In this document: in pieces, positions 5,307-52,877 of the stretch | How positions within the stretch are numbered: the stretch's first letter is position 1 | Layout of the letters: each line of letters opens with the position of its first letter | From: an uncultured Alphaproteobacteria bacterium | Lineage (GTDB): Bacteria > Pseudomonadota > Alphaproteobacteria > RF32 > CAG-239 | Reading direction: 5' to 3' | Assembly (NCBI GenBank): GCA_964017825.1 | Contig: CAXHMA010000001.1 | Span: forward strand, 83,928-147,927 | Length of the DNA: 64,000 nt | Made by a program: the position numbers and the translations under genes | The notes under the pieces: generated by a model | Told to the model about the DNA's origin: nothing | Databases searched by the model: none | What the model saw: only the letters and a program-made list of their open reading frames with translations

Positions 5307-8024
5307 ATGACAGAAAAAGTATGTTTGATAGACGGCTCGGGTTACATTTTCCGCGCCTTTTTCGCCAGCCCCAAAATGACGAACCCCGAAGGGCTGCCGG
5401 TCAATGCCGTATACGGTTTTTTGAATATGTTTTTAAGCCTGACCGCCAATATCAAATGCGATTACTGTCTGGTGCTGTTTGACGCCAAACGCCAAAACTT
5501 TCGCAATGAGTTTTTTGCCGACTATAAAGCCACCCGCCCCGAACTGCCGGAAGATTTGAAACCCCAGTTTGCACTGATACACGAAGTCGTGGAAGCCCTG
5601 AACCTGCATTGGCTCCAAATGGAAGGCTATGAAGCCGATGACCTGATTGCGACCTATGCCGACATGGCCTTAAAAGACGGCAAGGAAGTAACGATTGTCT
5701 CCGCTGACAAAGACTTAATGCAGCTTATCCGCCCCGGCGTCACCTTTTATGACAGCATGAAAAACAAATTTTTCACCCCCGAAGACGTCAAAGAAAAGTT
5801 CGGCGTTTATCCCGAACGCGTCACCGACGTACAGGCGCTGGCCGGCGACAGTACAGACAATATCCCCGGCGTCCCCGGCATCGGGCTTAAAACCGCCGCC
5901 GAGCTTGTCAACCAATTTGGCTCGCTGGAAGGCGTCTTGGAACACGCCGAAGAAATCAAGCAAAACAAACGCCGTGAACTGATTATGACGCACAAAGAAG
6001 ACGCGCTTGTTTCGCAAAAGCTCGTCACCTTAAAAGCTGACGTTCCCGTTGAGCTTCCCTTAAAAGACCTGCGCTGCATGGCGCCGCATCAGGAAGTCCT
6101 GAACGCGCTTCTTGACCGCCACGCTTTCAAAAGCCTGAAAAATAAAGCCGCCAACTGGCTTAAAAACAAATGTGCTTCTCTGCCCGAAGAACCTGTTACC
6201 GTGCCGCAGGAACTGACGCCGAACTATAAACTTATCCTGAGCGAAAAAGAACTGCCCGCCCTTTCTGCCGCCATTCAAGCCGAAAATATGTTTTCGTTCA
6301 AAGCGCATACCGTCAAAGACGAACTCATCGGACTGTCAATAAGCCTCCCGAACGCCCGCGCTTTTTACCTCCCTGTTGCTCAAACCGCACCGGCAGCAGA
6401 TTTATTTTCGGCGCCGACAGCCGCGGACGGCATAACCGCAAAACAGCTCAAACAAATTTTATCCCCTCTGTTCGCCAATTCTGCCGTTCTTAAAATATCG
6501 CTGGATATGAAAGAAAACGTCTCCCTGCTGCAAAAAGCATTTGAAATATCCGCCTATCCGTTCCCGTATGACGATGTTGCCATTATGTCATATGACCTGA
6601 ACAGTTCGTCCGTTGCTCACACTTTGCCTGCACTCGCTGCCGCATTTTTGCAAAAGAATCTTAAAACGGCCGAACCGGACTATAAAAAAGCCGATTTTAA
6701 AACCATGCCGCCGTCAGAAGCGTTAGCCTTTTTTGCCGAAGAGGCCGATTTCATCATGCGTCTGCACCGGCTCTTCCACCCGCAGCTCCTGCCCGAAAAG
6801 AAACTCTTTGTTTATGACGGTATTGACCGCCCGCTGTCTTCCGTTTTATACGATATGGAAAAGGCGGGCATTATGCTGGATACGAAAAAGCTGACCGAAC
6901 TCAACGCACTGTTTGACAAGGAGATGAACGCGCTTTCTTCCGAAATTTATAACATGGCGGAAACCGAATTTAACCTCAGTTCACCCAAGCAAATCGGCGA
7001 AATTTTATATGAAAAACTTGGCTTGAAAGGCAAAAAGCACCGCTCCGGCGCGCTTAATACCAGTGCCGAAGTGCTGGAAAAAATGGCCGAAACCCACGAG
7101 CTGCCGAAAAAGATTCTGGAATGGCGCAAATATCAGAAGCTCAAATCGACCTACACCACCGCCCTTCTGGAACTTATGGATAAAAACCACCGCGTGCATA
7201 CGACATACAGCCAGACCTCCGTCAACACCGGACGCCTGTCTTCCCTGAATCCGAACCTGCAAAACATCCCTATCCGCACCGAAATCGGGCGCGAACTGCG
7301 CAAATGTTTCATCGCCAAACCGGGGCATAAACTGATTGCCGCCGATTATTCGCAGGTGGAACTCCGCCTTTTGGCAACGATTGCCGATGTACCGTTTTTG
7401 CAGGAGGCGTTCAGAGAAAATGTTGACATTCACCGCAAAACCGCAGCCCAAGTCTTTGCTATTCCGTATGAAGAAGTTGACGCCGGCCACCGCCGCCGCG
7501 CCAAGGCAATCAACTTCGGCATTGTTTACGGCATTTCCGCATTCGGACTTTCCAAAGAAATTGACGCAACGCCCGCAGAAGCCCAGCGCTACATAGACGC
7601 TTATTTTGCCAACATGCCCGAAGTCAAAACCTATATGGAAGAAACTATTAATTTTGCCCGTCAAAACGGTTATGTCTTAACGCCTTTTAACCGCAAAATC
7701 ACTATTTTCGGCATTCAGGATAACAACAAACAGCTCGCCGCTTTTGCCGAACGGGCGGCGATTAACGCCCCGATACAAGGCGGCGCGGCAGACATAATCA
7801 AACTCGCGATGAACAAAATCCCCGCCAAATTAAAAGCAGCCGGACTGAAAGCGCAAATGCTCTTGCAGGTACATGACGAACTCGTGTTTGAAGCGCCCGA
7901 AGAAGAGGCCGAATCCGCCGCCGCACTGATAAAAAAAGAAATGGAAAACATCACCGCTATAGCACTCAAAACCCCGCTCATTGCCGAAACCGGCATCGGC
8001 GACAACTGGGACGAAGCGCACTAA
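5307..8024 (+). CDS. polA: DNA polymerase I.
   Basis: 905 aa; 5'-3' exonuclease N-domain, polymerase motifs DYSQVELR, RRxAKAINFGIVYG, QVHDELVFE. Confidence 0.95.
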   Translation: MTEKVCLIDGSGYIFRAFFASPKMTNPEGLPVNAVYGFLNMFLSLTANIKCDYCLVLFDAKRQNFRNEFFADYKATRPELPEDLKPQFALIHEVVEALNLHWLQMEGYEADDLIATYADMALKDGKEVTIVSADKDLMQLIRPGVTFYDSMKNKFFTPEDVKEKFGVYPERVTDVQALAGDSTDNIPGVPGIGLKTAAELVNQFGSLEGVLEHAEEIKQNKRRELIMTHKEDALVSQKLVTLKADVPVELPLKDLRCMAPHQEVLNALLDRHAFKSLKNKAANWLKNKCASLPEEPVTVPQELTPNYKLILSEKELPALSAAIQAENMFSFKAHTVKDELIGLSISLPNARAFYLPVAQTAPAADLFSAPTAADGITAKQLKQILSPLFANSAVLKISLDMKENVSLLQKAFEISAYPFPYDDVAIMSYDLNSSSVAHTLPALAAAFLQKNLKTAEPDYKKADFKTMPPSEALAFFAEEADFIMRLHRLFHPQLLPEKKLFVYDGIDRPLSSVLYDMEKAGIMLDTKKLTELNALFDKEMNALSSEIYNMAETEFNLSSPKQIGEILYEKLGLKGKKHRSGALNTSAEVLEKMAETHELPKKILEWRKYQKLKSTYTTALLELMDKNHRVHTTYSQTSVNTGRLSSLNPNLQNIPIRTEIGRELRKCFIAKPGHKLIAADYSQVELRLLATIADVPFLQEAFRENVDIHRKTAAQVFAIPYEEVDAGHRRRAKAINFGIVYGISAFGLSKEIDATPAEAQRYIDAYFANMPEVKTYMEETINFARQNGYVLTPFNRKITIFGIQDNNKQLAAFAERAAINAPIQGGAADIIKLAMNKIPAKLKAAGLKAQMLLQVHDELVFEAPEEEAESAAALIKKEMENITAIALKTPLIAETGIGDNWDEAH

Positions 8025-15921: not shown

Positions 15922-16197
15922 TTACTCCTCTTTCATATCTTCTAAACGCACCACAAGCCGCTTATTATAATATTTCAGTAACTCAGCTACGGCAAACCAG
16001 TTGAATTTGCGGCGCGCCATTTCCACCATTTCAATCTTATATGGCGGCACACCGATTTTTGCGCTCAACTCTTGCGATGACGCCCGCTTTTTCATCCGTT
16101 CGTTCAGCAAAAGCGTACCTATTTGGCGTTTGACATCATTACATAATATATCGCCGTTAAGGATATACTTTTTTTCTTCTTCTAATGTTTGAAACAT
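15922..16197 (-). CDS. Small XRE-type helix-turn-helix protein (91 aa), paralog of 40686..41009.
   Basis: HTH segment LSAKIGVPPYKIEMVE; AGGAG RBS; paralogous gene 25 kb away with the same upstream noncoding module. Confidence 0.55.
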   Translation of the reverse strand: MFQTLEEEKKYILNGDILCNDVKRQIGTLLLNERMKKRASSQELSAKIGVPPYKIEMVEMARRKFNWFAVAELLKYYNKRLVVRLEDMKEE

Positions 16198-16427
16198 GAT
16201 TTTTTACTCCTTGTTAAATTAAAACAAAAGGCGCTTAAAAGCGCCAGGGAGTTCACAAATCACAAAGCTATGACTCTCTTGGCCTTCAATATATAGCCAA
16301 GAGCTCCCTGACTTACATCAAGGAAAATGCTTTGAGAGCCTGTGACAGCCCTGACGGTGTCTCCACCGACAAAAGAAGTATAAAAGAGAATTTATAAAAG
16401 TAAAGTTAATTTTTTTGTTGTGGTATC
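16198..16427 (-). repeat. Rep2 copy A: ~225-bp conserved structured noncoding module upstream of HTH gene (about 90% identical to 41011..41235).
   Basis: Near-identical sequence at both loci; contains GC hairpin + T-run 20 nt before RBS, nested inverted repeats (CTCTTGGC...GCCAAGAG, CAGGGAGCTC...GAACTCCCTG). Confidence 0.7.
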
Positions 16428-21300: not shown

Positions 21301-21660
21301 TTGCAATTTGGAAAAATTTATTCTATACAGAATATGAATATGAGCTTGCTCATTATTCGCAGACGTTGAACGTCTGACTCGGGGCAGCAACCCCTAACAG
21401 CCGCGGTGTGTGGATATGCACCGTTAACTATATGATATAAAACAAAACAGGCTCAAAGCTTTTTGATGTTTTGTATTAACCCGTGTTAAAAAACTTTGGC
21501 AGAAACTGTTGAAGTTTCTACACACCGTTATCATATCCCCGATATGCCGTAAATTTTTATGGCCGGGGTAGTTCCGAATAAGTTTTATCAAATAAGGAAC
21601 GGCATTACGGTTGTTATGCTTGCTGTGCCCCGGCCGCTTCATTGAAGCGGTCTTTTTGTT
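21301..21660 (+). ncRNA. Candidate structured leader or sRNA: promoter-like TTGCAA-17-TATACA, multiple hairpins, intrinsic terminator at 21633..21660.
   Basis: No convincing ORF; six local hairpins plus long-range GGCCGGGG/CCCCGGCC pairing; GCCGCTTCATTGAAGCGG+TCTTTTT terminator 27 nt before lipoprotein ATG. Confidence 0.35.
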
Positions 21661-21686: not shown

Positions 21687-22217
21687 ATGTATAAAATTAT
21701 TTTAGCGTTAATCATAACATCGACACTGCTGCTTGCCTGCACCTCTCTGACATTTCATGAACAGCAGGAACTTTCCGAATTACAGTATAAAGGCATCAGC
21801 ATAGACCGCGGCCCCCGCGGCTGGCAAAAACCCGCAAACCCGCCTGTCGCCGGAATGCTGAACATTCTCCCCGGCTTCGGCAATTTTTACCTTGCCAACG
21901 GCAATGCTTCCGAATCTTCGCACTGGATTTACGGCGTGCTTAACCTGCTGACCTGGCCGTTATCCATTATCTGGGGTGTTCCGGAAGCAACCATTGATGC
22001 GGACAATATCAACAAACGCGATATGTTAAATTACCTCAAATACGGCAACGGCTCCGGCACAAGGTTTAATAATCTTGAAAACATCAGTAATACGCCAAGC
22101 TATCGCACGCCGGGTTATAATCAGGATTATTCACGCCCTCAGCCCTACCGCCGGCCGTATCAACAAGCACCGCGCCGTCAGCAATATTATGATACATATC
22201 CGTCATACGGATATTAG
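21687..22217 (+). CDS. Lipoprotein with Tyr/Pro/Gln/Arg-rich low-complexity C-terminus.
   Basis: MYKIILALIITSTLLLAC lipobox; C-terminal YRTPGYNQDYSRPQPYRRPYQQ repeats. Confidence 0.55.
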   Translation: MYKIILALIITSTLLLACTSLTFHEQQELSELQYKGISIDRGPRGWQKPANPPVAGMLNILPGFGNFYLANGNASESSHWIYGVLNLLTWPLSIIWGVPEATIDADNINKRDMLNYLKYGNGSGTRFNNLENISNTPSYRTPGYNQDYSRPQPYRRPYQQAPRRQQYYDTYPSYGY

Positions 22218-35976: not shown

Positions 35977-37083
35977 TTAAAACTTCTTTTCCACCACCGC
36001 GCGGTTGCGCAAATCGCGGATATATTTATTCGCGAGCTCGCCTGTTTTGCGCTCTTCAATAAACTTACGCACTTCGTCTTCCGTCGGGAGATTTTGCTTA
36101 TCTTTCGCCGGATTGTAAATTTTATCCATACGAAAGATATAATAGTCGGCTCTGTATGGTACGGCTTTGGAAATTTCGCCCTCTTTTAATGCCCGTACGG
36201 CCTTATCCAACGGTGCTGCCAGCTGCCCCGGAGCCACCCAGCCGAGCTTGCCGCCCGAAGGTGCGCTTGCCGACTGCGAAAACTGCGCGGCATAAAGCTC
36301 AAAGCGCGGGTCTTTTTGCAAAATGTCCACGAGCTCGCCGATGTGCTCGCCGTCTTTGCGTTTAATCACGATTTCAGAGACCATATATTTCGGTGTATTC
36401 ATGTCTTTTTTAATACGCTCCAACTCTTCCGCGATTTCCCTTTCCGAAATATAAATCCCTTGTCCCTGTTTGCGGTTGACCAGCTTGTTCCATAATAAAT
36501 TTGCTTTAATCTGGTTCATAAAAACATCTTTGCTGACATGATATTCTTTCAACACTGCGGCAAACTTTCCGGCCGGAACGCTGTTGGACTTTTCAAAATT
36601 GCGGTACGCCTGTTTGATTTCCTTATCCGTCACGCCCACGCCCTGTTTTTCGGCTTCCTGAAACTTAATCTTCTCGTCAACGGTATTTTGCAAAACTTTT
36701 TCGGCAACCATTTTTTTATTCTTATCATTAATATGAATTCCGGTTGTCAGGGCAAACAAATTGGCTCTCTCCTGCAAATCTTTGTTTGAGAGCATTTCGC
36801 CGTTGACCGTCGCCACGATTTTCAAACCGTTTCCGAACAAATTATAAGGTCGGAAAACAACCGCCTCCCGCTTTAATTTTGCCTCTCTTTCCATCCGCTC
36901 TCTGGCTTCCTCTTCTGCCCTTTCGCGCATCATTTGTTCATCATCCGCGTTGTTGCGCCGAAACATGATTGATTTGGAAGAAGAGCTCCTGAGTTCCCTG
37001 TCCAAGGTCGACATATCCAAATCTGCCGCCGCCGCATCAAACGCAAACAACATGCTAAGCAAAAACAAGGCTGATTTCATCAT
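35977..37083 (-). CDS. surA: Periplasmic chaperone/parvulin PPIase SurA-like.
   Basis: Signal peptide, charged linker, chaperone domain, parvulin domain (GGKLGWVAPGQL); conserved lptD-surA-rsmA order. Confidence 0.7.
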   Translation of the reverse strand: MMKSALFLLSMLFAFDAAAADLDMSTLDRELRSSSSKSIMFRRNNADDEQMMRERAEEEARERMEREAKLKREAVVFRPYNLFGNGLKIVATVNGEMLSNKDLQERANLFALTTGIHINDKNKKMVAEKVLQNTVDEKIKFQEAEKQGVGVTDKEIKQAYRNFEKSNSVPAGKFAAVLKEYHVSKDVFMNQIKANLLWNKLVNRKQGQGIYISEREIAEELERIKKDMNTPKYMVSEIVIKRKDGEHIGELVDILQKDPRFELYAAQFSQSASAPSGGKLGWVAPGQLAAPLDKAVRALKEGEISKAVPYRADYYIFRMDKIYNPAKDKQNLPTEDEVRKFIEERKTGELANKYIRDLRNRAVVEKKF

Positions 37084-40685: not shown

Positions 40686-41009
40686 TTACTCAACAGCTTC
40701 GGTACTTGTCTCCGCTGGCGGCTCACTGCCGTATTTCAAACCCAGCGTCGGCGCATTCTCTAAACGAAGAGCCAGCGTCTTACCGTAAAAATCCAGCAAT
40801 ATCTCCACGGCTCCCCAGTGTGGCTTTTCTTTGGCGAGTTCCACCTCCTCAATCGTCCGTTCCGCCAGCCCTGTCTTGTCGCTGACCAACGTCAACCGCA
40901 GCCGACGCCGTTGCCGCTCTGCAAACAACGCCTGCCCGACCAGCTGACGCATATGCCGACAGCAAATCTCGCCGTTGCGCATAAAGTTACTAAATTCCTC
41001 ACTATTCAT
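40686..41009 (-). CDS. Small XRE-type helix-turn-helix protein (107 aa), paralog of 15922..16197.
   Basis: HTH LVSDKTGLAERTIEEVE; same upstream Rep2 module. Confidence 0.55.
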   Translation of the reverse strand: MNSEEFSNFMRNGEICCRHMRQLVGQALFAERQRRRLRLTLVSDKTGLAERTIEEVELAKEKPHWGAVEILLDFYGKTLALRLENAPTLGLKYGSEPPAETSTEAVE

Positions 41010-41010
41010 G

Positions 41011-41235
41011 ATTTTTTACTCCTTGTTTAAGTTAAAACAAAAGGCGCTTAAAAGCGCCAGGGAGTTCAGAAATCACCAAAATATGACTCTCTTAGCCTTC
41101 AATATATAGCCAAGAGCTCCCTGACTTATTATCAAGGAAAAATTATTTTGGAGAGCCTCTGACAGCCCTGACGGTGTCTCCACCGACAAAAGGAAGTATA
41201 AGGGAAGAATTATAAAAGTAAAGTTAATTTTTACT
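41011..41235 (-). repeat. Rep2 copy B (conserved structured upstream module of HTH gene).
   Basis: About 90% identical to 16198..16427 including GGCGCTTTTAAGCGCC hairpin + T-run and nested inverted repeats. Confidence 0.7.
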
Positions 41236-42573: not shown

Positions 42574-42945
42574 CTACCTGCCGAGCAAATGATGTTTATG
42601 ATGCGGCCCCCATATGTCATAAGCCAAACGTGCGGCAGCCGCTCCGCTCAAAAAATATATAAAGTTCTGCATAACGTCGCGTAAATATGAATGGCAGCAA
42701 TTCTCTCTTTGCGCCTGCTTCCATACCGCATATTTATATGCCGGCGAAACAACAACAGGCGCCCGGACAGGCTGTGGCGCCTCATGCCAAGCAGGCAAAG
42801 CAGAAATAACTCTCACCTCTTCGACTTCATCCTTTGCTGCCTCATACCCCGCCGGTGCTGTCGTAATCATCTCCATATAACTGTTGGCAAACGCCTGCGC
42901 GGGCAACAGCAAAACTGTCAACATAAACAAAGTCCGCATACGCAT
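42574..42945 (-). CDS. Secreted hypothetical protein with His-rich C-terminus (…GPHHKHHLLGR).
   Basis: Signal peptide MRMRTLFMLTVLLLPAQAFA; overlaps upstream gene start/stop. Confidence 0.45.
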   Translation of the reverse strand: MRMRTLFMLTVLLLPAQAFANSYMEMITTAPAGYEAAKDEVEEVRVISALPAWHEAPQPVRAPVVVSPAYKYAVWKQAQRENCCHSYLRDVMQNFIYFLSGAAAARLAYDIWGPHHKHHLLGR

Positions 42946-43349
42946 TACCACCGGTGATGCCACGGACGCCCCCAACGATGCGGACGCCAACCCCGTCTGT
43001 GATGATGGTGATGATAGCCGCCGTAAATCAGTCCGCCGACAACCGCCGTCGTTACCCCCGCTGCCAACGCGGCATTGGTCACATCCCTGTCGTAATAATA
43101 ACTGTTTTGAATAACAGGCGATTCTCTGACCACAGTCATCGGCGGCACCACAACCGTCGTCGGTGCTGTTGTAGTGGTAGTTGTCGATGTGGTTTTAACC
43201 GCTGTCGGTGCCGGCGTATCAAACGTGGAAGGAACGGTAAACATCTGACGTACCACGCGCCCCTCGCCGTCTATCACCACAATAGATTCAGCCTGAACAT
43301 TACCGGCCGCCAGCAGGCAAAGCCCGAACAAATAAATCACTTTTCTCAT
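42945..43349 (-). CDS. Secreted protein with Thr-rich linker, glycine-zipper segment and His/Arg/Trp-rich tail (GGYHHHHHRRGWRPHRWGRPWHHRW).
   Basis: Signal peptide MRKVIYLFGLCLLAAGNVQA; AALAAGVTTAVVGGLIYGG glycine zipper. Confidence 0.5.
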   Translation of the reverse strand: MRKVIYLFGLCLLAAGNVQAESIVVIDGEGRVVRQMFTVPSTFDTPAPTAVKTTSTTTTTTAPTTVVVPPMTVVRESPVIQNSYYYDRDVTNAALAAGVTTAVVGGLIYGGYHHHHHRRGWRPHRWGRPWHHRW

Positions 43350-43615
43350 TTTAACCTCGCTTTTAATTAACATACATACTAATATGTATATATTAATTTA
43401 TTTTGCAAGCACTTTTTTCAAAAATATACACAAATTTTGAAAATCCGTTTTCCTGTAAAAAAAAATATTATTTTTATTATATAATATATATATTTCTTTT
43501 GGTTCTTTTCTTTTAGATACAGCGTCGGTTAAGCGTCGGTGTAAAAAGTATAGCGACGCTGAAACAGCGATAAAAAAACGGAGCCCGAAGCCCCGTTTTT
43601 CCGATACCGCCTTAA

Positions 43616-49379: not shown

Positions 49380-49658
49380 ATGAGCGATAAAATCAGCGTA
49401 GAACTCAAAATCATAAATGAACGCGGACTGCACGCCAGAGCTGCCGCCAACTTTGTCAAAAGTATAGACGGGTTGAATGCCGATGTTGAAGTGGAACGCC
49501 TCGGTCAATGTGTCGGCGGCTGTTCCATTATGGGGTTGATGATGCTTGCCGCCGGCAAAGGAACAACGATTAAAGTTTCGGCAAGCGGCGCGGATGCCCA
49601 AAAAGCCATCAACAATATTTCTGATTTGGTAAACAATAAATTCGGCGAGGAAAAATGA
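49380..49658 (+). CDS. ptsH: Phosphocarrier protein HPr/NPr.
   Basis: GLHARAAA around His15; 92 aa. Confidence 0.85.
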   Translation: MSDKISVELKIINERGLHARAAANFVKSIDGLNADVEVERLGQCVGGCSIMGLMMLAAGKGTTIKVSASGADAQKAINNISDLVNNKFGEEK

Positions 49659-50587
49659 GCGGCACCCCTGCCCCCCGTAATAAAACCATAGTTCTGACAC
49701 CCGAAGAAACGGAACAATACGCAGCGCGTGCCGTAACGCTTACCAAAAAATCTTCATTAAAAGATATCATAGACCGCACCATTTGGCAGGATACATTCGA
49801 AGCCTTAAAATTTCTTCCCGCCAATTTCGCCGATTTGGTCGTTGTCGACCCGCCTTATAATCTGACCAAAAAATTCGGCAGCAAAGAATTCAAGTCCATG
49901 GATTGGAATGATTACAAACGCTGGATGGATAAATGGCTGGCGGAAGTGTTTATCTCTTTAAAGCCCAACGGCAGTCTGTATATCTGCTCCGATTGGAACA
50001 CATCCATCGCCGTTCCCGAAATTGCCGGCAAATATTTCCTCTTAAAAAACCGCATAACCTGGGAGCGCGAAAAAGGCAGAAGCTCCGGCAACAACTGGAA
50101 AAACTGCATTGAAGACATCTGGTTTTTTACCAAATCTCCCGAATACACGTTTAATCTGGATGCTGTCAAATTAAAGCGTCCGGTGCTCGCACCGTATAAA
50201 GACGATAACGGTACCCCGAAAGACTGGCAGGAAGATGATGAAAATGACGGTAAAAAATTCCGCCTGACAGCACCGTCAAACCTTTGGACGGATATCTCCA
50301 TTCCGTTTTGGTCAATGGCTGAAAACACATCTCATCCGACGCAAAAGCCGGAAAAACTCATTGCCAAGCTGATATTGGCTTCAAGCAATGAGGGCGACGT
50401 CGTTTTTGACCCGTTTCTCGGCTCGGGAACCACTTCCGTCACCGCGGCCAAGCTCGGACGGCACTATGTCGGCATTGAACGCGAAAAAGAATATGTAGCC
50501 TTGGCCGAAAAGAGGCTGGAAAGGGCTGCCGAAGACAAAACCATCCAAGGCTACGAAGACGGCGTTTTCAAACTCCGCCATGCTTAA
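49655..50587 (+). CDS. Beta-class N6-adenine DNA methyltransferase, CcrM-like orphan (no adjacent endonuclease).
   Basis: Motif IV DPPYN near N-terminus, motif I FDPFLGSGTT near C-terminus; ATGA overlap with HPr stop. Confidence 0.8.
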   Translation: MSGTPAPRNKTIVLTPEETEQYAARAVTLTKKSSLKDIIDRTIWQDTFEALKFLPANFADLVVVDPPYNLTKKFGSKEFKSMDWNDYKRWMDKWLAEVFISLKPNGSLYICSDWNTSIAVPEIAGKYFLLKNRITWEREKGRSSGNNWKNCIEDIWFFTKSPEYTFNLDAVKLKRPVLAPYKDDNGTPKDWQEDDENDGKKFRLTAPSNLWTDISIPFWSMAENTSHPTQKPEKLIAKLILASSNEGDVVFDPFLGSGTTSVTAAKLGRHYVGIEREKEYVALAEKRLERAAEDKTIQGYEDGVFKLRHA

Positions 50588-50645
50588 CGGCTCACCGCAC
50601 ACTATTAATAACATAGCATTTTTGCCATAAAATACAAAAAAACAG

Positions 50646-50866
50646 TTGCAAAAATAGATAATTCGTTATATAAACCATCTAAGAAGCTGCTAATAAACAG
50701 GTCCGGGGCGTCAGAAACCCTGTAAGCAATCGTTTCCATAACGAAGGACATCGCGTTTTGAGGAGTTAAAGGACGGACGTCGGCGAATAAGAGCTTGCTC
50801 AAATAAGCCGAGCCGTTGATTGCTTACGGTTTCTGAACGTCCGCCCGCCTTTTCGTGCGGGCTTTT
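50646..50866 (+). ncRNA. Candidate ~185-nt sRNA with own promoter (TTGCAA-17-TATAAA), ~25-bp imperfect closing helix and intrinsic terminator; no ATG inside.
   Basis: 5' arm GGGGCGTCAGAAACCCTGTAAGCAATC pairs with 3' arm GATTGCTTACGGTTTCTGAACGTCCGCCC; terminator GCCCGCCTTTTCGTGCGGGC+TTTTT. Confidence 0.45.
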
Positions 50867-50902
50867 TCATTTTCTGCTTGAAACATCTCAAAAATCTAAA
50901 AT

Positions 50903-50936
50903 AGCTATTGAGTTTTATGAGTTTTCCCCCTATATA
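50903..50936 (+). promoter_or_regulatory. Putative sigma70 promoter of ftsH (TTGAGT-17-TATATAAT).
   Basis: Consensus-like hexamers ~70 nt upstream of ftsH start. Confidence 0.3.
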
Positions 50937-51005
50937 ATACAGGAATGGATTGTTTGTAAAAAAAACAGTTCCCGCAATCATGCAACATATTTCTGATAGG
51001 AAACA

Positions 51006-52877
51006 TTGAGAATGAAACAGGGAAAAAATATTATCATCTGGTTGGCAGCTTTTGTTTTTCTGAGCCTTGCCTTAAACGGCCTCGCTCCCGAAAGCAGAAC
51101 CGGAACTGCCGAAAAAATCGCCTTTTCCGACTTTATGGACAGTGCGGAAGAAAACCGCGTCAATTCTGTCACCATTGTCGGCAACGATATACAGGGCACT
51201 TATAATGACGGTACCAAATTCCATACCTATGCGCCCTTTGACCCGAATATGATTGAAAGTTTAAGAAAGCTGAATATCAAAATCGAAGCCCGCCCGATAG
51301 ATACATCCGAAAGCACTTTCTGGGGCGTGCTGATTTCCTGGTTCCCGATGCTGCTTCTTATCGGCGTTTGGATATTCTTTATGCGTCAGGCCAATAGCGG
51401 CAACAATAAAGCCATGAGTTTCGGCAAATCGCGCGCCAAACTGATAGAAAACACCAAACGCGTGACTTTCGCGGACGTAGCCGGCGCGGATGAAAGCAAG
51501 CAGGAACTGGAAGAAATTATCGACTTTTTAAAAGACCCGCAGAAATTCCAGCGTCTGGGCGGCAAAATTCCGCGGGGCGTTTTGCTTGTCGGCCCTCCGG
51601 GAACAGGTAAAACCTTGTTGGCCAAAGCTGTGGCAGGCGAGGCTAACGTACCGTTTTTCTCCATTTCCGGCTCGGATTTTGTCGAAATGTTTGTCGGCGT
51701 CGGAGCTTCGCGTGTGCGTGATATGTTTGCCCAAGCCAAAAAAAACGCACCCTGCCTGCTCTTTATTGATGAGATTGATGCCGTCGGACGCCATCGCGGC
51801 GCCGGTCTCGGCGGCGGCAATGACGAACGCGAGCAAACCTTAAACCAATTGCTGGTGGAAATGGACGGTTTTGACGCCAACGAAAACGTCATCCTGATTG
51901 CCGCAACCAACCGCCCCGACGTGCTTGACCCTGCGCTTTTGCGCCCCGGGCGTTTTGACCGACAGGTAACGGTTGTGAACCCCGATGTCAAAGGGCGTGA
52001 GGAAATCTTAAAAGTACACACGCGCAAAGTGCCTTTGGCCAAAGATGTGGATTTAAGCATTGTTGCCCGCGGCACACCGGGATTTTCCGGCGCGGATTTG
52101 GCAAACCTTGTCAATGAAGCCGCACTTTTGGCTGCCCGTAAAAATAAGCTCAAAGTCAGCTCAGCCGACTTTGACGCGGCCAAAGATAAAGTCTTAATGG
52201 GCAACGAACGCAAATCCATGGCTATGGACGAGAAAGAAAAAATGCTCACGGCATATCATGAAGCCGGGCATGCTATCTGCTCGTTAAACGTCAAAGATAC
52301 CGACCCGATACATAAAGCGACAATTATCCCCCGCGGCCGCGCGCTCGGCATGGTGCAGCAGTTGCCGGAAAAAGACCGGTATTCATACACGCGCGCGCAG
52401 ATGCTTTCCCGCCTTGCCATCATGATGGGCGGACGTGTTGCCGAAGAAATGAAATTCGGTTATGACGCCGTAACATCCGGCGCTTCGTCAGACATCAACG
52501 CCGCCACCAATCTGGCGCGTGCCATGGTGACCGAATGGGGCATGAGCGATATATTGGGACCGATTCGCTATTCCGAAAACTCCAATGAAGTTTTCCTCGG
52601 GCGTTCCGTTACCCAAAACCAAAACATGAGCGAAGAAACCGCGCGCCTTGTGGATACGGAAATCAAACGCCTTGTCACTGACGGTTACGAAGAAGCGAAA
52701 AAGATTCTGCAAAAGAATAAAAAAGATTGGGAAACGCTTGCACAGGCATTAATGGAATATGAAACCTTAACCGGAGACGAAATTAAAGACGTCCTTGCCG
52801 GAAAAGAGATTGACAAGACCAAAGATGCCCCGGTTCCGGAAGAAAAGCGCACCAAATCTTCCGTACCCGAGCTGTAA
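51006..52877 (+). CDS. ftsH: ATP-dependent zinc metalloprotease FtsH.
   Basis: Two TM, AAA Walker [12 protein letters not shown], zinc site HEAGHA. Confidence 0.95.

Follow-up and report, generated by a model that had tools for sequence, protein, structure and literature searches.

The window analysed here, a stretch of 64,000 nt from an uncultured alphaproteobacterium (contig CAXHMA010000001.1), carries a gene for a small RNA (sRNA) at 50646-50867, between an N6/N4 DNA methylase gene and ftsH. Open reading frames (ORFs) resembling the EIIA component of the phosphotransferase system (PTS) and HPr precede the methylase gene, and ftsH is the next gene downstream of the sRNA on the same strand. 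The original prediction, made from the letters of the stretch, had described a stand-alone and perhaps undescribed sRNA, reminiscent of 6S RNA, with a near-consensus promoter, about 185 nt devoid of ATG, an imperfect closing helix of about 25 bp around an interior of about 85 nt, and a canonical terminator. Direct reading confirmed the promoter, TTGCAA-17-TATAAA, which the promoter scan had omitted because its rule demands a T as the last base of the second hexamer. The predicted transcript is 187 nt long (50681-50867; Table 1) and holds no ATG, an absence with a chance probability of about 0.05 that is weak evidence alone. The terminator GCCCGC..GCGGGC+TTTTT is present as described, and five of its pairs covary in the family of related elements introduced below. 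Promoter, Rho-independent terminator, lack of coding potential and conservation in orthologous intergenic regions are, at the level of sequence, the attributes of a stand-alone sRNA gene.

Conservation was assessed with the methylase as bait and one genome per species, which yielded 80 loci (cited by L-numbers); the closest of them (86-91% identity) belong to metagenome-assembled genomes (MAGs) of uncultured gut and rumen Alphaproteobacteria. Comparison of the orthologous intergenic regions, a check proposed together with the prediction, located the element at this position, flanked by the methylase gene and by ftsH, in the genomes of 10 related species (L002-L007, L017, L022, L025 and L026). 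Promoter, 5' strand, 3' half and terminator are conserved across these 10 loci; the central ~40 nt and both flanks are unalignable. An eleventh locus, L029, has a copy downstream of ftsH. The -35 hexamer TTGCAA occurs in 10 of the 11 aligned homologues (the 10 same-locus orthologues and L029), L022 reading TTGAAA and L029 having none, and the aligned -10 position is occupied by TATAGT, TATGTT or a similar hexamer. Other close relatives do not carry the element; L001 has a short unrelated spacer and L009 an inserted gene.

The predicted closing helix agrees within a few bases with the minimum free energy (MFE) fold of the window RNA, in which the outer 5' strand and the inner strand V1 pair with the segments given for them in Table 1. 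This closed fold has an energy of -69.5 kcal/mol (z = -3.3), equalled by 1 of 200 shuffled sequences, and contains two exact inverted repeats of 9/9 (50711-50719 with 50828-50836) and 10/10 nt (50722-50731 with 50818-50827). On a MAFFT alignment of 58 distinct elements (A1), 89.7% of the cells are paired in the closed fold, far above all slid controls, and the covariation score of 0.257, against 0.130 for shuffled alignments, is reached in none of 500 shuffles. All nine pairs between V1 and V2, the variable loop segment of hairpin 2, change on both sides, with up to five or six pair types per position. Two pairs of the outer helix switch together, GC/AU in 29 sequences versus AU/GC in 24-25; a direct count gave CGAAA/TTTTCG in 30, CAGAA/TTTCTG in 24, mixed forms in 3 and a divergent form in 1. 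Without recourse to any alignment, a stretch of at least 7 nt exactly complementary to the V2 loop of the same copy is found about 100 nt upstream of that loop in nearly all copies, across more than 24 different V2 sequences. A further 12-nt inverted repeat (50756-50767 with 50882-50893, 83% complementary), running from the variable spacer to just past the terminator, is probably due to chance.

The interior of about 85 nt is real; it is not an open bubble and contains conserved hairpins, which belong to a second fold. In this fold the 3' part of the RNA forms a three-way module, with a closing stem, two hairpins and a single-stranded linker, of the type found in the Rfam family sRNA-Xcc1. On the alignment 93.3% of the cells are paired in the module fold, and covariation is seen in hairpin 1 (GC:48/AU:10), in its mini-hairpin (GC:47/AU:11, with five pair types at the next pair) and at one closing-stem pair (UA:56/CG:2); the hairpin-2 stem is invariant and hence uninformative. 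The CG change at the closing pair, present in the window copy and L022, leaves the closing stem intact and introduces a mismatch into the long helix. Compensated changes within the window clade are C-G versus U-A in the closing stem and G-C to A-U in hairpin 1. A reading of the GGAUGU segment as a CsrA site was rejected, because the window copy and L022 have turned GGAUG to GGACG jointly with the partner strand, a change that speaks for base pairing and against a protein motif. When excised, the module (50771-50850) has the Xcc1 fold as its energy minimum; in the complete window RNA, forcing the closing stem to form costs 17.7 kcal/mol relative to the closed fold. Formation of the long helix takes up the linker, a portion of the closing strand and the 3' half of hairpin 2, and the closing stem in turn requires 3-4 bases of the terminator 5' arm, and the overlap, CCGCCC[G/A]CC, is present in 58 of 58 copies. 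In the window copy both structures use 50843-50846, and so the terminator and the closing stem cannot form together. The closed and module folds are mutually exclusive.

Rfam gathering scores were not reached anywhere in the window. The sRNA-Xcc1 model (RF02221) aligned to 50771-50854 over model positions 1-87 with 34.6 bits, the cut-off being 53, and with expectation values (E) of 2e-4 in a search of 461 nt (50560-51020) and 0.03 in the whole window. A leader-type relative, L099, gave 34.5 bits over the whole model, and the cut-off was reached at 0 of 11 tested loci with family copies; true sRNA-Xcc1 members scored 86 and 80 bits. A covariance model of the module only (R1) was built from 49 distinct modules. 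It gave 93.8 bits for the window copy and found the annotated sRNA-Xcc1 of phage Aaphi23 (40.3 bits, E 2e-9) and of the Shiga toxin (Stx) phage P13374 (25.6 bits, E 5e-5), both at the Rfam-annotated position. As R1 finds annotated sRNA-Xcc1 and RF02221 aligns to the family, the similarity is reciprocal, and by sequence the 3' half of the window sRNA is a distant sRNA-Xcc1 relative. An Rfam match had been named as the finding that would make the sRNA merely unannotated; one was found, but only below threshold. The RNA is thus undescribed in that no Rfam family covers it at the curated threshold, and not so in that it is a member of a family with sRNA-Xcc1 as a distant relative. The stated lack of resemblance to tmRNA, RNase P and SRP RNA was borne out by an empty ARAGORN result and by no such Rfam match at gathering or permissive E thresholds; a tRNA was rejected on the same grounds, and sRNA-Xcc1 gave the single meaningful match at permissive thresholds. 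Matches to PhrS and a Trp leader at 13.5 bits were discarded, as they reflect the terminator only.

A pattern scan of metagenome contigs with CGAGCCGT-N6-30-ACGGTTTNNGAAC returned 120 loci, of which 92 were matched by a profile from the first 12 sequences; the other 28 are GC-rich chance matches. In total the family comprises about 109 copies (83 distinct) on gut and rumen metagenome contigs and in MAGs. Where a contig has two copies, these are either tandem, at a distance of about 270 nt (L083, L152, L186), or separated by kilobases (L089, L118). The description as stand-alone holds for the window copy, which runs from promoter to terminator, is non-coding and has no attached gene; most family copies are 5' leaders directly before genes. 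The common plan begins with a promoter, a variable hairpin, AGGGCGUC(GAAAA/AGAAA)CCC and the hypervariable V1, followed by a GUCG..CGAC hairpin and the segment AUGCCGAYUUCUG. Then comes the module, GGACGGAUGUCGGY-GAAUAAGG-(mini-hairpin)-AAAUAAGCCGA-GCCGU-[V2]-ACGGUUU(UC/CU)GAAC-AUCCGCCC, and a terminator whose 5' arm starts inside CCGCCC and which ends in a U-run. The GUCG..CGAC hairpin and AUGCCGAYUUCUG, which is complementary to the module 5' strand, occupy in leader-type relatives the position of the variable spacer; the window copy does not have this anti-closing segment.

In leader copies the terminator lies 20-30 nt ahead of the ribosome-binding site of diverse genes, and there is no space for a further promoter ahead of the gene; most copies have AAGGAUGU and a start codon about 20 nt past the U-run. 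The genes behind the cassettes encode large repetitive secreted proteins, lipoproteins, a PEGA-domain protein, an outer-membrane beta-barrel protein, pilin-like proteins, EcoRI-type adenine methylases and helix-turn-helix (HTH) proteins. ACAUCC, the 3' closing strand, complements the conserved ribosome-binding region AAGGAUGU ahead of the next gene, and a divergent subtype present in the window combines a closing-strand CUCCC with AAGGAG as ribosome-binding site. This three-way match is suggestive, although not shown for every subtype, and pilin-type leaders do not fit. The family appears from its sequences to be an abundant chromosomal element of uncultured gut Alphaproteobacteria. This assignment, which is not proven for each contig, has four grounds: family copies occur at three MAG loci with an Alphaproteobacteria label (L029, L031, L034), the median GC content of the family loci is 41%, similar to the window, the samples are of gut and rumen origin, and one protein is shared at 57% identity.

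The V1 and V2 segments behave as a barcode. Across 18 near-identical leaders from one subfamily, identity is 62% in the V1/V2 columns, which have constant ends and an essentially unrelated 5-6-nt core, compared with 88% for the rest of the element and 57% for the unconstrained terminator loop. Barcodes also differ among copies on one contig. A segment that diverges fast and yet is always complementary is not expected of a purely structural helix. Because the paired segment diverges like an unpaired loop while staying complementary, the divergence and the different barcodes per genome would point to selection for specificity in an intermolecular RNA-RNA interaction. In the window clade the barcode is almost constant (CAAUUGCUU, UGAUUGCUU, CGAUUGCUU, CUGUUGCUU), which fits a conserved partner; the address of the window copy is AAGCAAUC plus CAGAAACC.

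Some copies depart from this arrangement. The first tandem copies (L083 745-1025, L152 64-344, L186 3082-3363) have a V1, UUUAAAAAC, that mismatches their own V2, and the V2 instead matches the 3' arm of their own 5' hairpin; the first copy of L152 carries the V2 of the second copy in L083 and L186. These tandem arrangements may represent a cascade or recombinants. The copy at L165 9480-9656 (minus strand) combines a V1 of one barcode type (AUAAAGCUA) with a V2 of another (UAAGUCUAU); it appears from its sequence to be a recombinant, in which the long helix cannot form.

An R1 search of the window with the filters off found three further cassettes, which Rfam models did not match even at permissive thresholds. 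All three fold into the closed form. The second cassette precedes a lipoprotein gene, the third is the leader of an HTH gene (41009..40686; Pfam HTH_31, weak at 24.2 bits versus a 27-bit cut-off) and the fourth is the leader of a 91-aa gene (16197..15922). The copies at 41 and 16 kb differ by compensated changes between decoy and loop/linker, GUCAGAGG/UUUCUGAAC versus GUCACAGG/UUUGUGAAC and CCAAAAUA/UAUUUUGG versus CAAAGC/GCUUUG. The window thus has four cassettes in 64 kb with four different barcodes. Elsewhere in the window, at 42574-43373 (minus strand), two neighbouring small ORFs have signal-peptide-like starts, and the second of them (42945-43373, minus strand) has a Thr-rich run and a His/Arg/Trp-rich tail (…GGYHHHHHRRGWRPHRWGRPWHHRW).

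Table 1. Features of the sRNA locus and of the further cassettes in the 64-kb window.
Feature	Position	Strand	Basis or remarks
N6/N4 DNA methylase gene (Pfam PF01555)	49655-50587		upstream of the sRNA
-35 hexamer TTGCAA	50646..50651	+	direct reading
-10 hexamer TATAAA	50669..50674	+	17 nt after the -35 hexamer; direct reading
Predicted primary transcript, 187 nt	50681..50867	+	start predicted from the promoter; end at the T-run
Outer 5' strand of long helix, GGGCGUCAGAAACC ('b1'-like decoy)	50706..50719	+	pairs with 50828-50842
Inner 5' strand V1, GUAAGCAAUC ('a1'-like)	50722..50731	+	complement of the barcode loop; pairs with 50818-50827
Variable spacer	50732..50770	+	unconserved among orthologues (alignments, folds)
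sRNA-Xcc1/c4-type module	50771..50846	+	RF02221 alignment, model R1, covariation, excised fold
Module closing stem	50771-50779 with 50838-50846	+	
Module hairpin 1	50780-50811	+	GAAUAAG/AAAUAAG internal loops; mini-hairpin 50791-50800
Module hairpin 2	50812-50830	+	barcode loop 50817-50825
Single-stranded linker of module	50831-50837	+	
Intrinsic terminator	50843..50867	+	GCCCGC 50843-50848, 8-nt loop, GCGGGC 50857-50862, TTTTT 50863-50867
ftsH promoter	TTGAGT 50908-50913, 17 nt, TATATAAT; to 50938		downstream of the sRNA terminator
Second cassette, leader type	21475..21660	+	module 21559-21639; R1 43.9 bits, E 2e-10
Terminator of second cassette	~21633-21655	+	ATG of lipoprotein gene at 21687
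Third cassette, divergent subtype	41030..41205	-	module 41052-41127; R1 20.2 bits, E 0.002
Fourth cassette, paralogue of the 41-kb copy	16217..16392	-	module 16239-16314; R1 18 bits, E 0.009

The best explanation for these observations, considered reasonably probable, is a self-masked antisense RNA of c4/Xcc1 type combined with an attenuator, of which the window copy would be a stand-alone and probably trans-acting version. The 3' part (50771-50846) would be the antisense module, with the hairpin-2 loop as its specificity barcode, and the 5' part (50706-50731) a cis-encoded copy of the target of the module, that is, a decoy. In the primary transcript the decoy would pair with the barcode loop and linker, forming the long helix that had originally been predicted. 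This closed fold leaves the terminator hairpin free and would mask the antisense surface, so that transcription would stop, whereas the Xcc1-type fold takes bases from the terminator 5' arm and would act as an antiterminator. Leader copies would then most likely function as a combined attenuator and translational switch, the state of which would be set by RNA-RNA pairing at the barcode: with the closed fold, transcription would terminate and the gene be off; with the module fold, transcription would continue past the terminator, the ribosome-binding site would be accessible and the gene on. Barcode pairing could take place in cis during transcription or with a trans RNA of the same address, as in IsrK and P4 CI. 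The window copy may have lost its gene or never had one. Since it ends at the terminator without a gene, the small RNA is its only product, which would act in trans on RNAs bearing its barcode after removal or displacement of the decoy.

Several points weigh against this explanation. The RF02221 score of the window copy is below the curated cut-off, and the family shows no consistent downstream target copy of the a2b2/seqC kind. In 51 of 58 copies the module has A opposite C at its third closing pair, and covariation in the closing stem is limited to one pair, seen in 2 sequences. The fast change of the barcodes could in part reflect weak constraint rather than diversifying selection. As the full-length RNA is predicted to be closed, trans action would need a putative processing or displacement step. 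A search of the 64-kb window for trans targets with 10-mer and 22-mer patterns recovered only the element itself. The best non-self RNAduplex site for the module loop plus linker, 36796-36840 (minus strand, -33.5 kcal/mol), lies about 4.5 standard deviations below the window mean, which is marginal for 25,600 windows tested. A regular expression for orphan decoys, which was too permissive, gave no convincing orphan apart from a contig-end fragment (L034).

The window copy might alternatively be an orphaned leader that lost its downstream gene and is still transcribed and terminated but functionless. Most family members are leaders, the leader segment AUGCCGAYUUCUG is missing in the window copy, and the element is missing at the locus in many close relatives, L001 and L009 among them. 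However, promoter, decoy, module and terminator persist in 11 species-level genomes in which flanks and central spacer have become unalignable; together with the compensated changes in closing stem and hairpin 1 and the nearly constant barcode of the clade, this makes a functionless relic unlikely. It is rather improbable that the element is a cis-acting attenuator of ftsH, which would sense a signal and add to ftsH transcription by terminator read-through. Such a role would be in line with its position upstream of ftsH on the same strand in 10 of 10 orthologous loci and with the use of the family as leaders elsewhere. Yet ftsH has its own promoter past the terminator, TTGAGT-17-TATATAAT, which is kept even in relatives lacking the sRNA such as L001 (about 7100-7140), and this marks the sRNA as an independent unit outside the ftsH promoter region. 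In addition, the distance from terminator to ftsH varies from ~140 to ~430 nt among orthologous loci with unrelated inserts, and the window copy lacks the post-terminator tail and the ribosome-binding site that are conserved in leader copies. A ~430-nt C/T-rich low-complexity insert lies between the sRNA terminator and the ftsH promoter in L017 (about 7250-7650) and at the same place in L025. A 7-mer match to the barcode complement in the ftsH leader (50975-50981) was dismissed; it is not kept in orthologues and is expected by chance.

Little probability is likewise given to a function of the closed form itself, in which the long double-stranded hairpin would, for example, bind protein, act as a sponge or be cut by RNase III, and the Xcc1-like fold would be irrelevant. 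The closed form is a clear energy minimum with the strongest covariation, and the A-rich hairpin-1 loops are exposed in both folds. This explanation does not, however, account for the compensated closing-stem change that breaks the long helix, for the reciprocal Xcc1 similarity over the whole module or for the conserved overlap between closing stem and terminator. The proposed likeness to 6S RNA (RF00013), which would imply binding of RNA polymerase, was prompted by the size of ~185 nt and the long closing helix and is refuted as far as sequence and structure can test it. The 6S model has no match at the gathering threshold, at E <= 10 (50560-51020) or at E <= 5 (whole window), the interior is the conserved three-way module with covarying hairpins instead of an open-promoter-like bubble, and four related copies in 64 kb have different helix sequences, most copies being gene leaders. 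A 6S-type RNA is thus highly improbable.

RNAs of the c4/CI/IsrK/Xcc1 type are phage and mobile-element devices that control antirepressors or toxins. Here a design of this phage type is found as an abundant chromosomal element, apparently rebuilt so that the module competes with an intrinsic terminator, and the cassettes precede many unrelated genes, mostly for envelope proteins, each copy having its own complementary barcode. Most of the interest lies in this family picture of abundant, barcoded, terminator-coupled cassettes before envelope genes. If the proposed mechanism is true, a phage immunity mechanism would extend to general host gene control, and the family would offer a natural set of orthogonal RNA switches and a testable handle on surface regulation in poorly known gut bacteria. 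For annotation, it defines a family that Rfam currently misses. A wider proposal, regarded as doubtful, is that barcoded RNA switches of this kind, insulated from one another, are spread over the whole genome, with a separate address of 5-10 nt for each surface-protein, lipoprotein, pilin-like or regulator gene. Trans feedback by the terminated or processed product of a locus would then be restricted to nascent transcripts that share its address. This would permit locus-specific, possibly bistable expression resembling phase variation without DNA rearrangement, and stand-alone copies such as that of the window would serve as independent regulators, or as RNAs of an immunity-like kind, for a matching address at another genomic site.

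Compared with sRNA-Xcc1, the module has the same 9-bp closing stem, hairpin 1 with AAUA.../...AAUAA internal loops and a terminal mini-hairpin, the GCCGU-loop-ACGGU hairpin 2, the UUUYYGAAC linker and the RCC tail. At the Aaphi23 and P13374 loci, too, a segment complementary to loop plus linker precedes the module, arranged and oriented as in the window RNA, and sRNA-Xcc1 likewise sits directly upstream of an accompanied gene, which is the antirepressor gene ant in the phages. It has also been found upstream of symE in Xanthomonas integron cassettes (bioRxiv 10.1101/2025.06.18.660453), and upstream of an ORF6N gene in APSE phages. In contrast, the second target copy of the phage members, which overlaps the ant ribosome-binding site, is absent in the gut family, the intrinsic terminator overlaps the closing stem in the gut family, and the family of the window is chromosomal, located by housekeeping and surface-protein genes rather than in phages or integrons. 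The window copy itself, between the methylase gene and ftsH, has none of the mobile-element, ant or symE context of sRNA-Xcc1. A pattern scan of viral contigs gave 2 matches, both by chance in coding DNA, and a plasmid blastn with the Xcc1 consensus gave 4 weak matches only. Readings of the inverted repeat as a retron noncoding RNA or an integron attC site were rejected, there being no reverse transcriptase or integrase nearby and no R/L box pattern.

The c4 RNAs of P1 and P7 and the CI RNA of P4 are, like the module, structured antisense RNAs embedded in the transcript under control, with recognition bases in a hairpin loop and the adjacent single strand, complements upstream and specificity set by the loop sequences. 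An upstream complement of the a1b1/seqA type is present in the window copy and family-wide. Direct reading of true C4 and Xcc1 phage loci found the upstream complement in both, plus a downstream target copy. The c4 and CI RNAs are processed by RNase P. In the gut family an acceptor-like closing stem is followed by a conserved G/A-C-C, an arrangement compatible with RNase P cleavage as in c4 and CI. The C4 antisense RNA is required to block its own P1 immI operon (PMC8198154), and in P4 the processed CI antisense RNA pairs with seqA upstream and seqC downstream, leading to premature termination (summarised in PMC4825925). The gut family differs in having neither phage context nor antirepressor and in the terminator right after the module, which competes with the closing stem. 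The C4 (RF01695) and isrK (RF01394) models had no match at E <= 10 on 50560-51020, C4 had none on L099, and P1 was not retrieved by blastn with the C4 consensus.

The IsrK system (isrK-orf45-anrP of Salmonella Gifsy-1) offers an experimentally tested precedent. Transcription from a single promoter yields both a short RNA ending at a terminator and an mRNA that reads through it, and expression depends on which of two alternative structures forms; the short isoform regulates the long one in trans, shifting it between the two structures through competition with its own sequence (PMC4825925). The IsrK terminator lies behind the decoy, so that the short RNA is the decoy, whereas in the gut family it lies behind the module and the short RNA comprises decoy plus module. 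At the P13374 locus (L204 463-700), the Rfam isrK match (463-538) corresponds to a decoy plus terminator and ends 25 nt before the C4 module (563-650), and the target copy overlaps the Shine-Dalgarno sequence of the next gene (CAAUCAAGGAGG). The isrK-C4 pair of this phage follows the three-part plan too, with a decoy, an antisense module and, over the Shine-Dalgarno sequence, a target. No clan is given in Rfam for sRNA-Xcc1 or isrK, although IsrK, C4 and sRNA-Xcc1 give the impression of being variants or pieces of a single cassette design. Because the Rfam cut-off is not reached and design and context differ from sRNA-Xcc1, the window sRNA is not merely an unannotated member of that family; it is clearly of the c4/CI/IsrK/Xcc1 kind.

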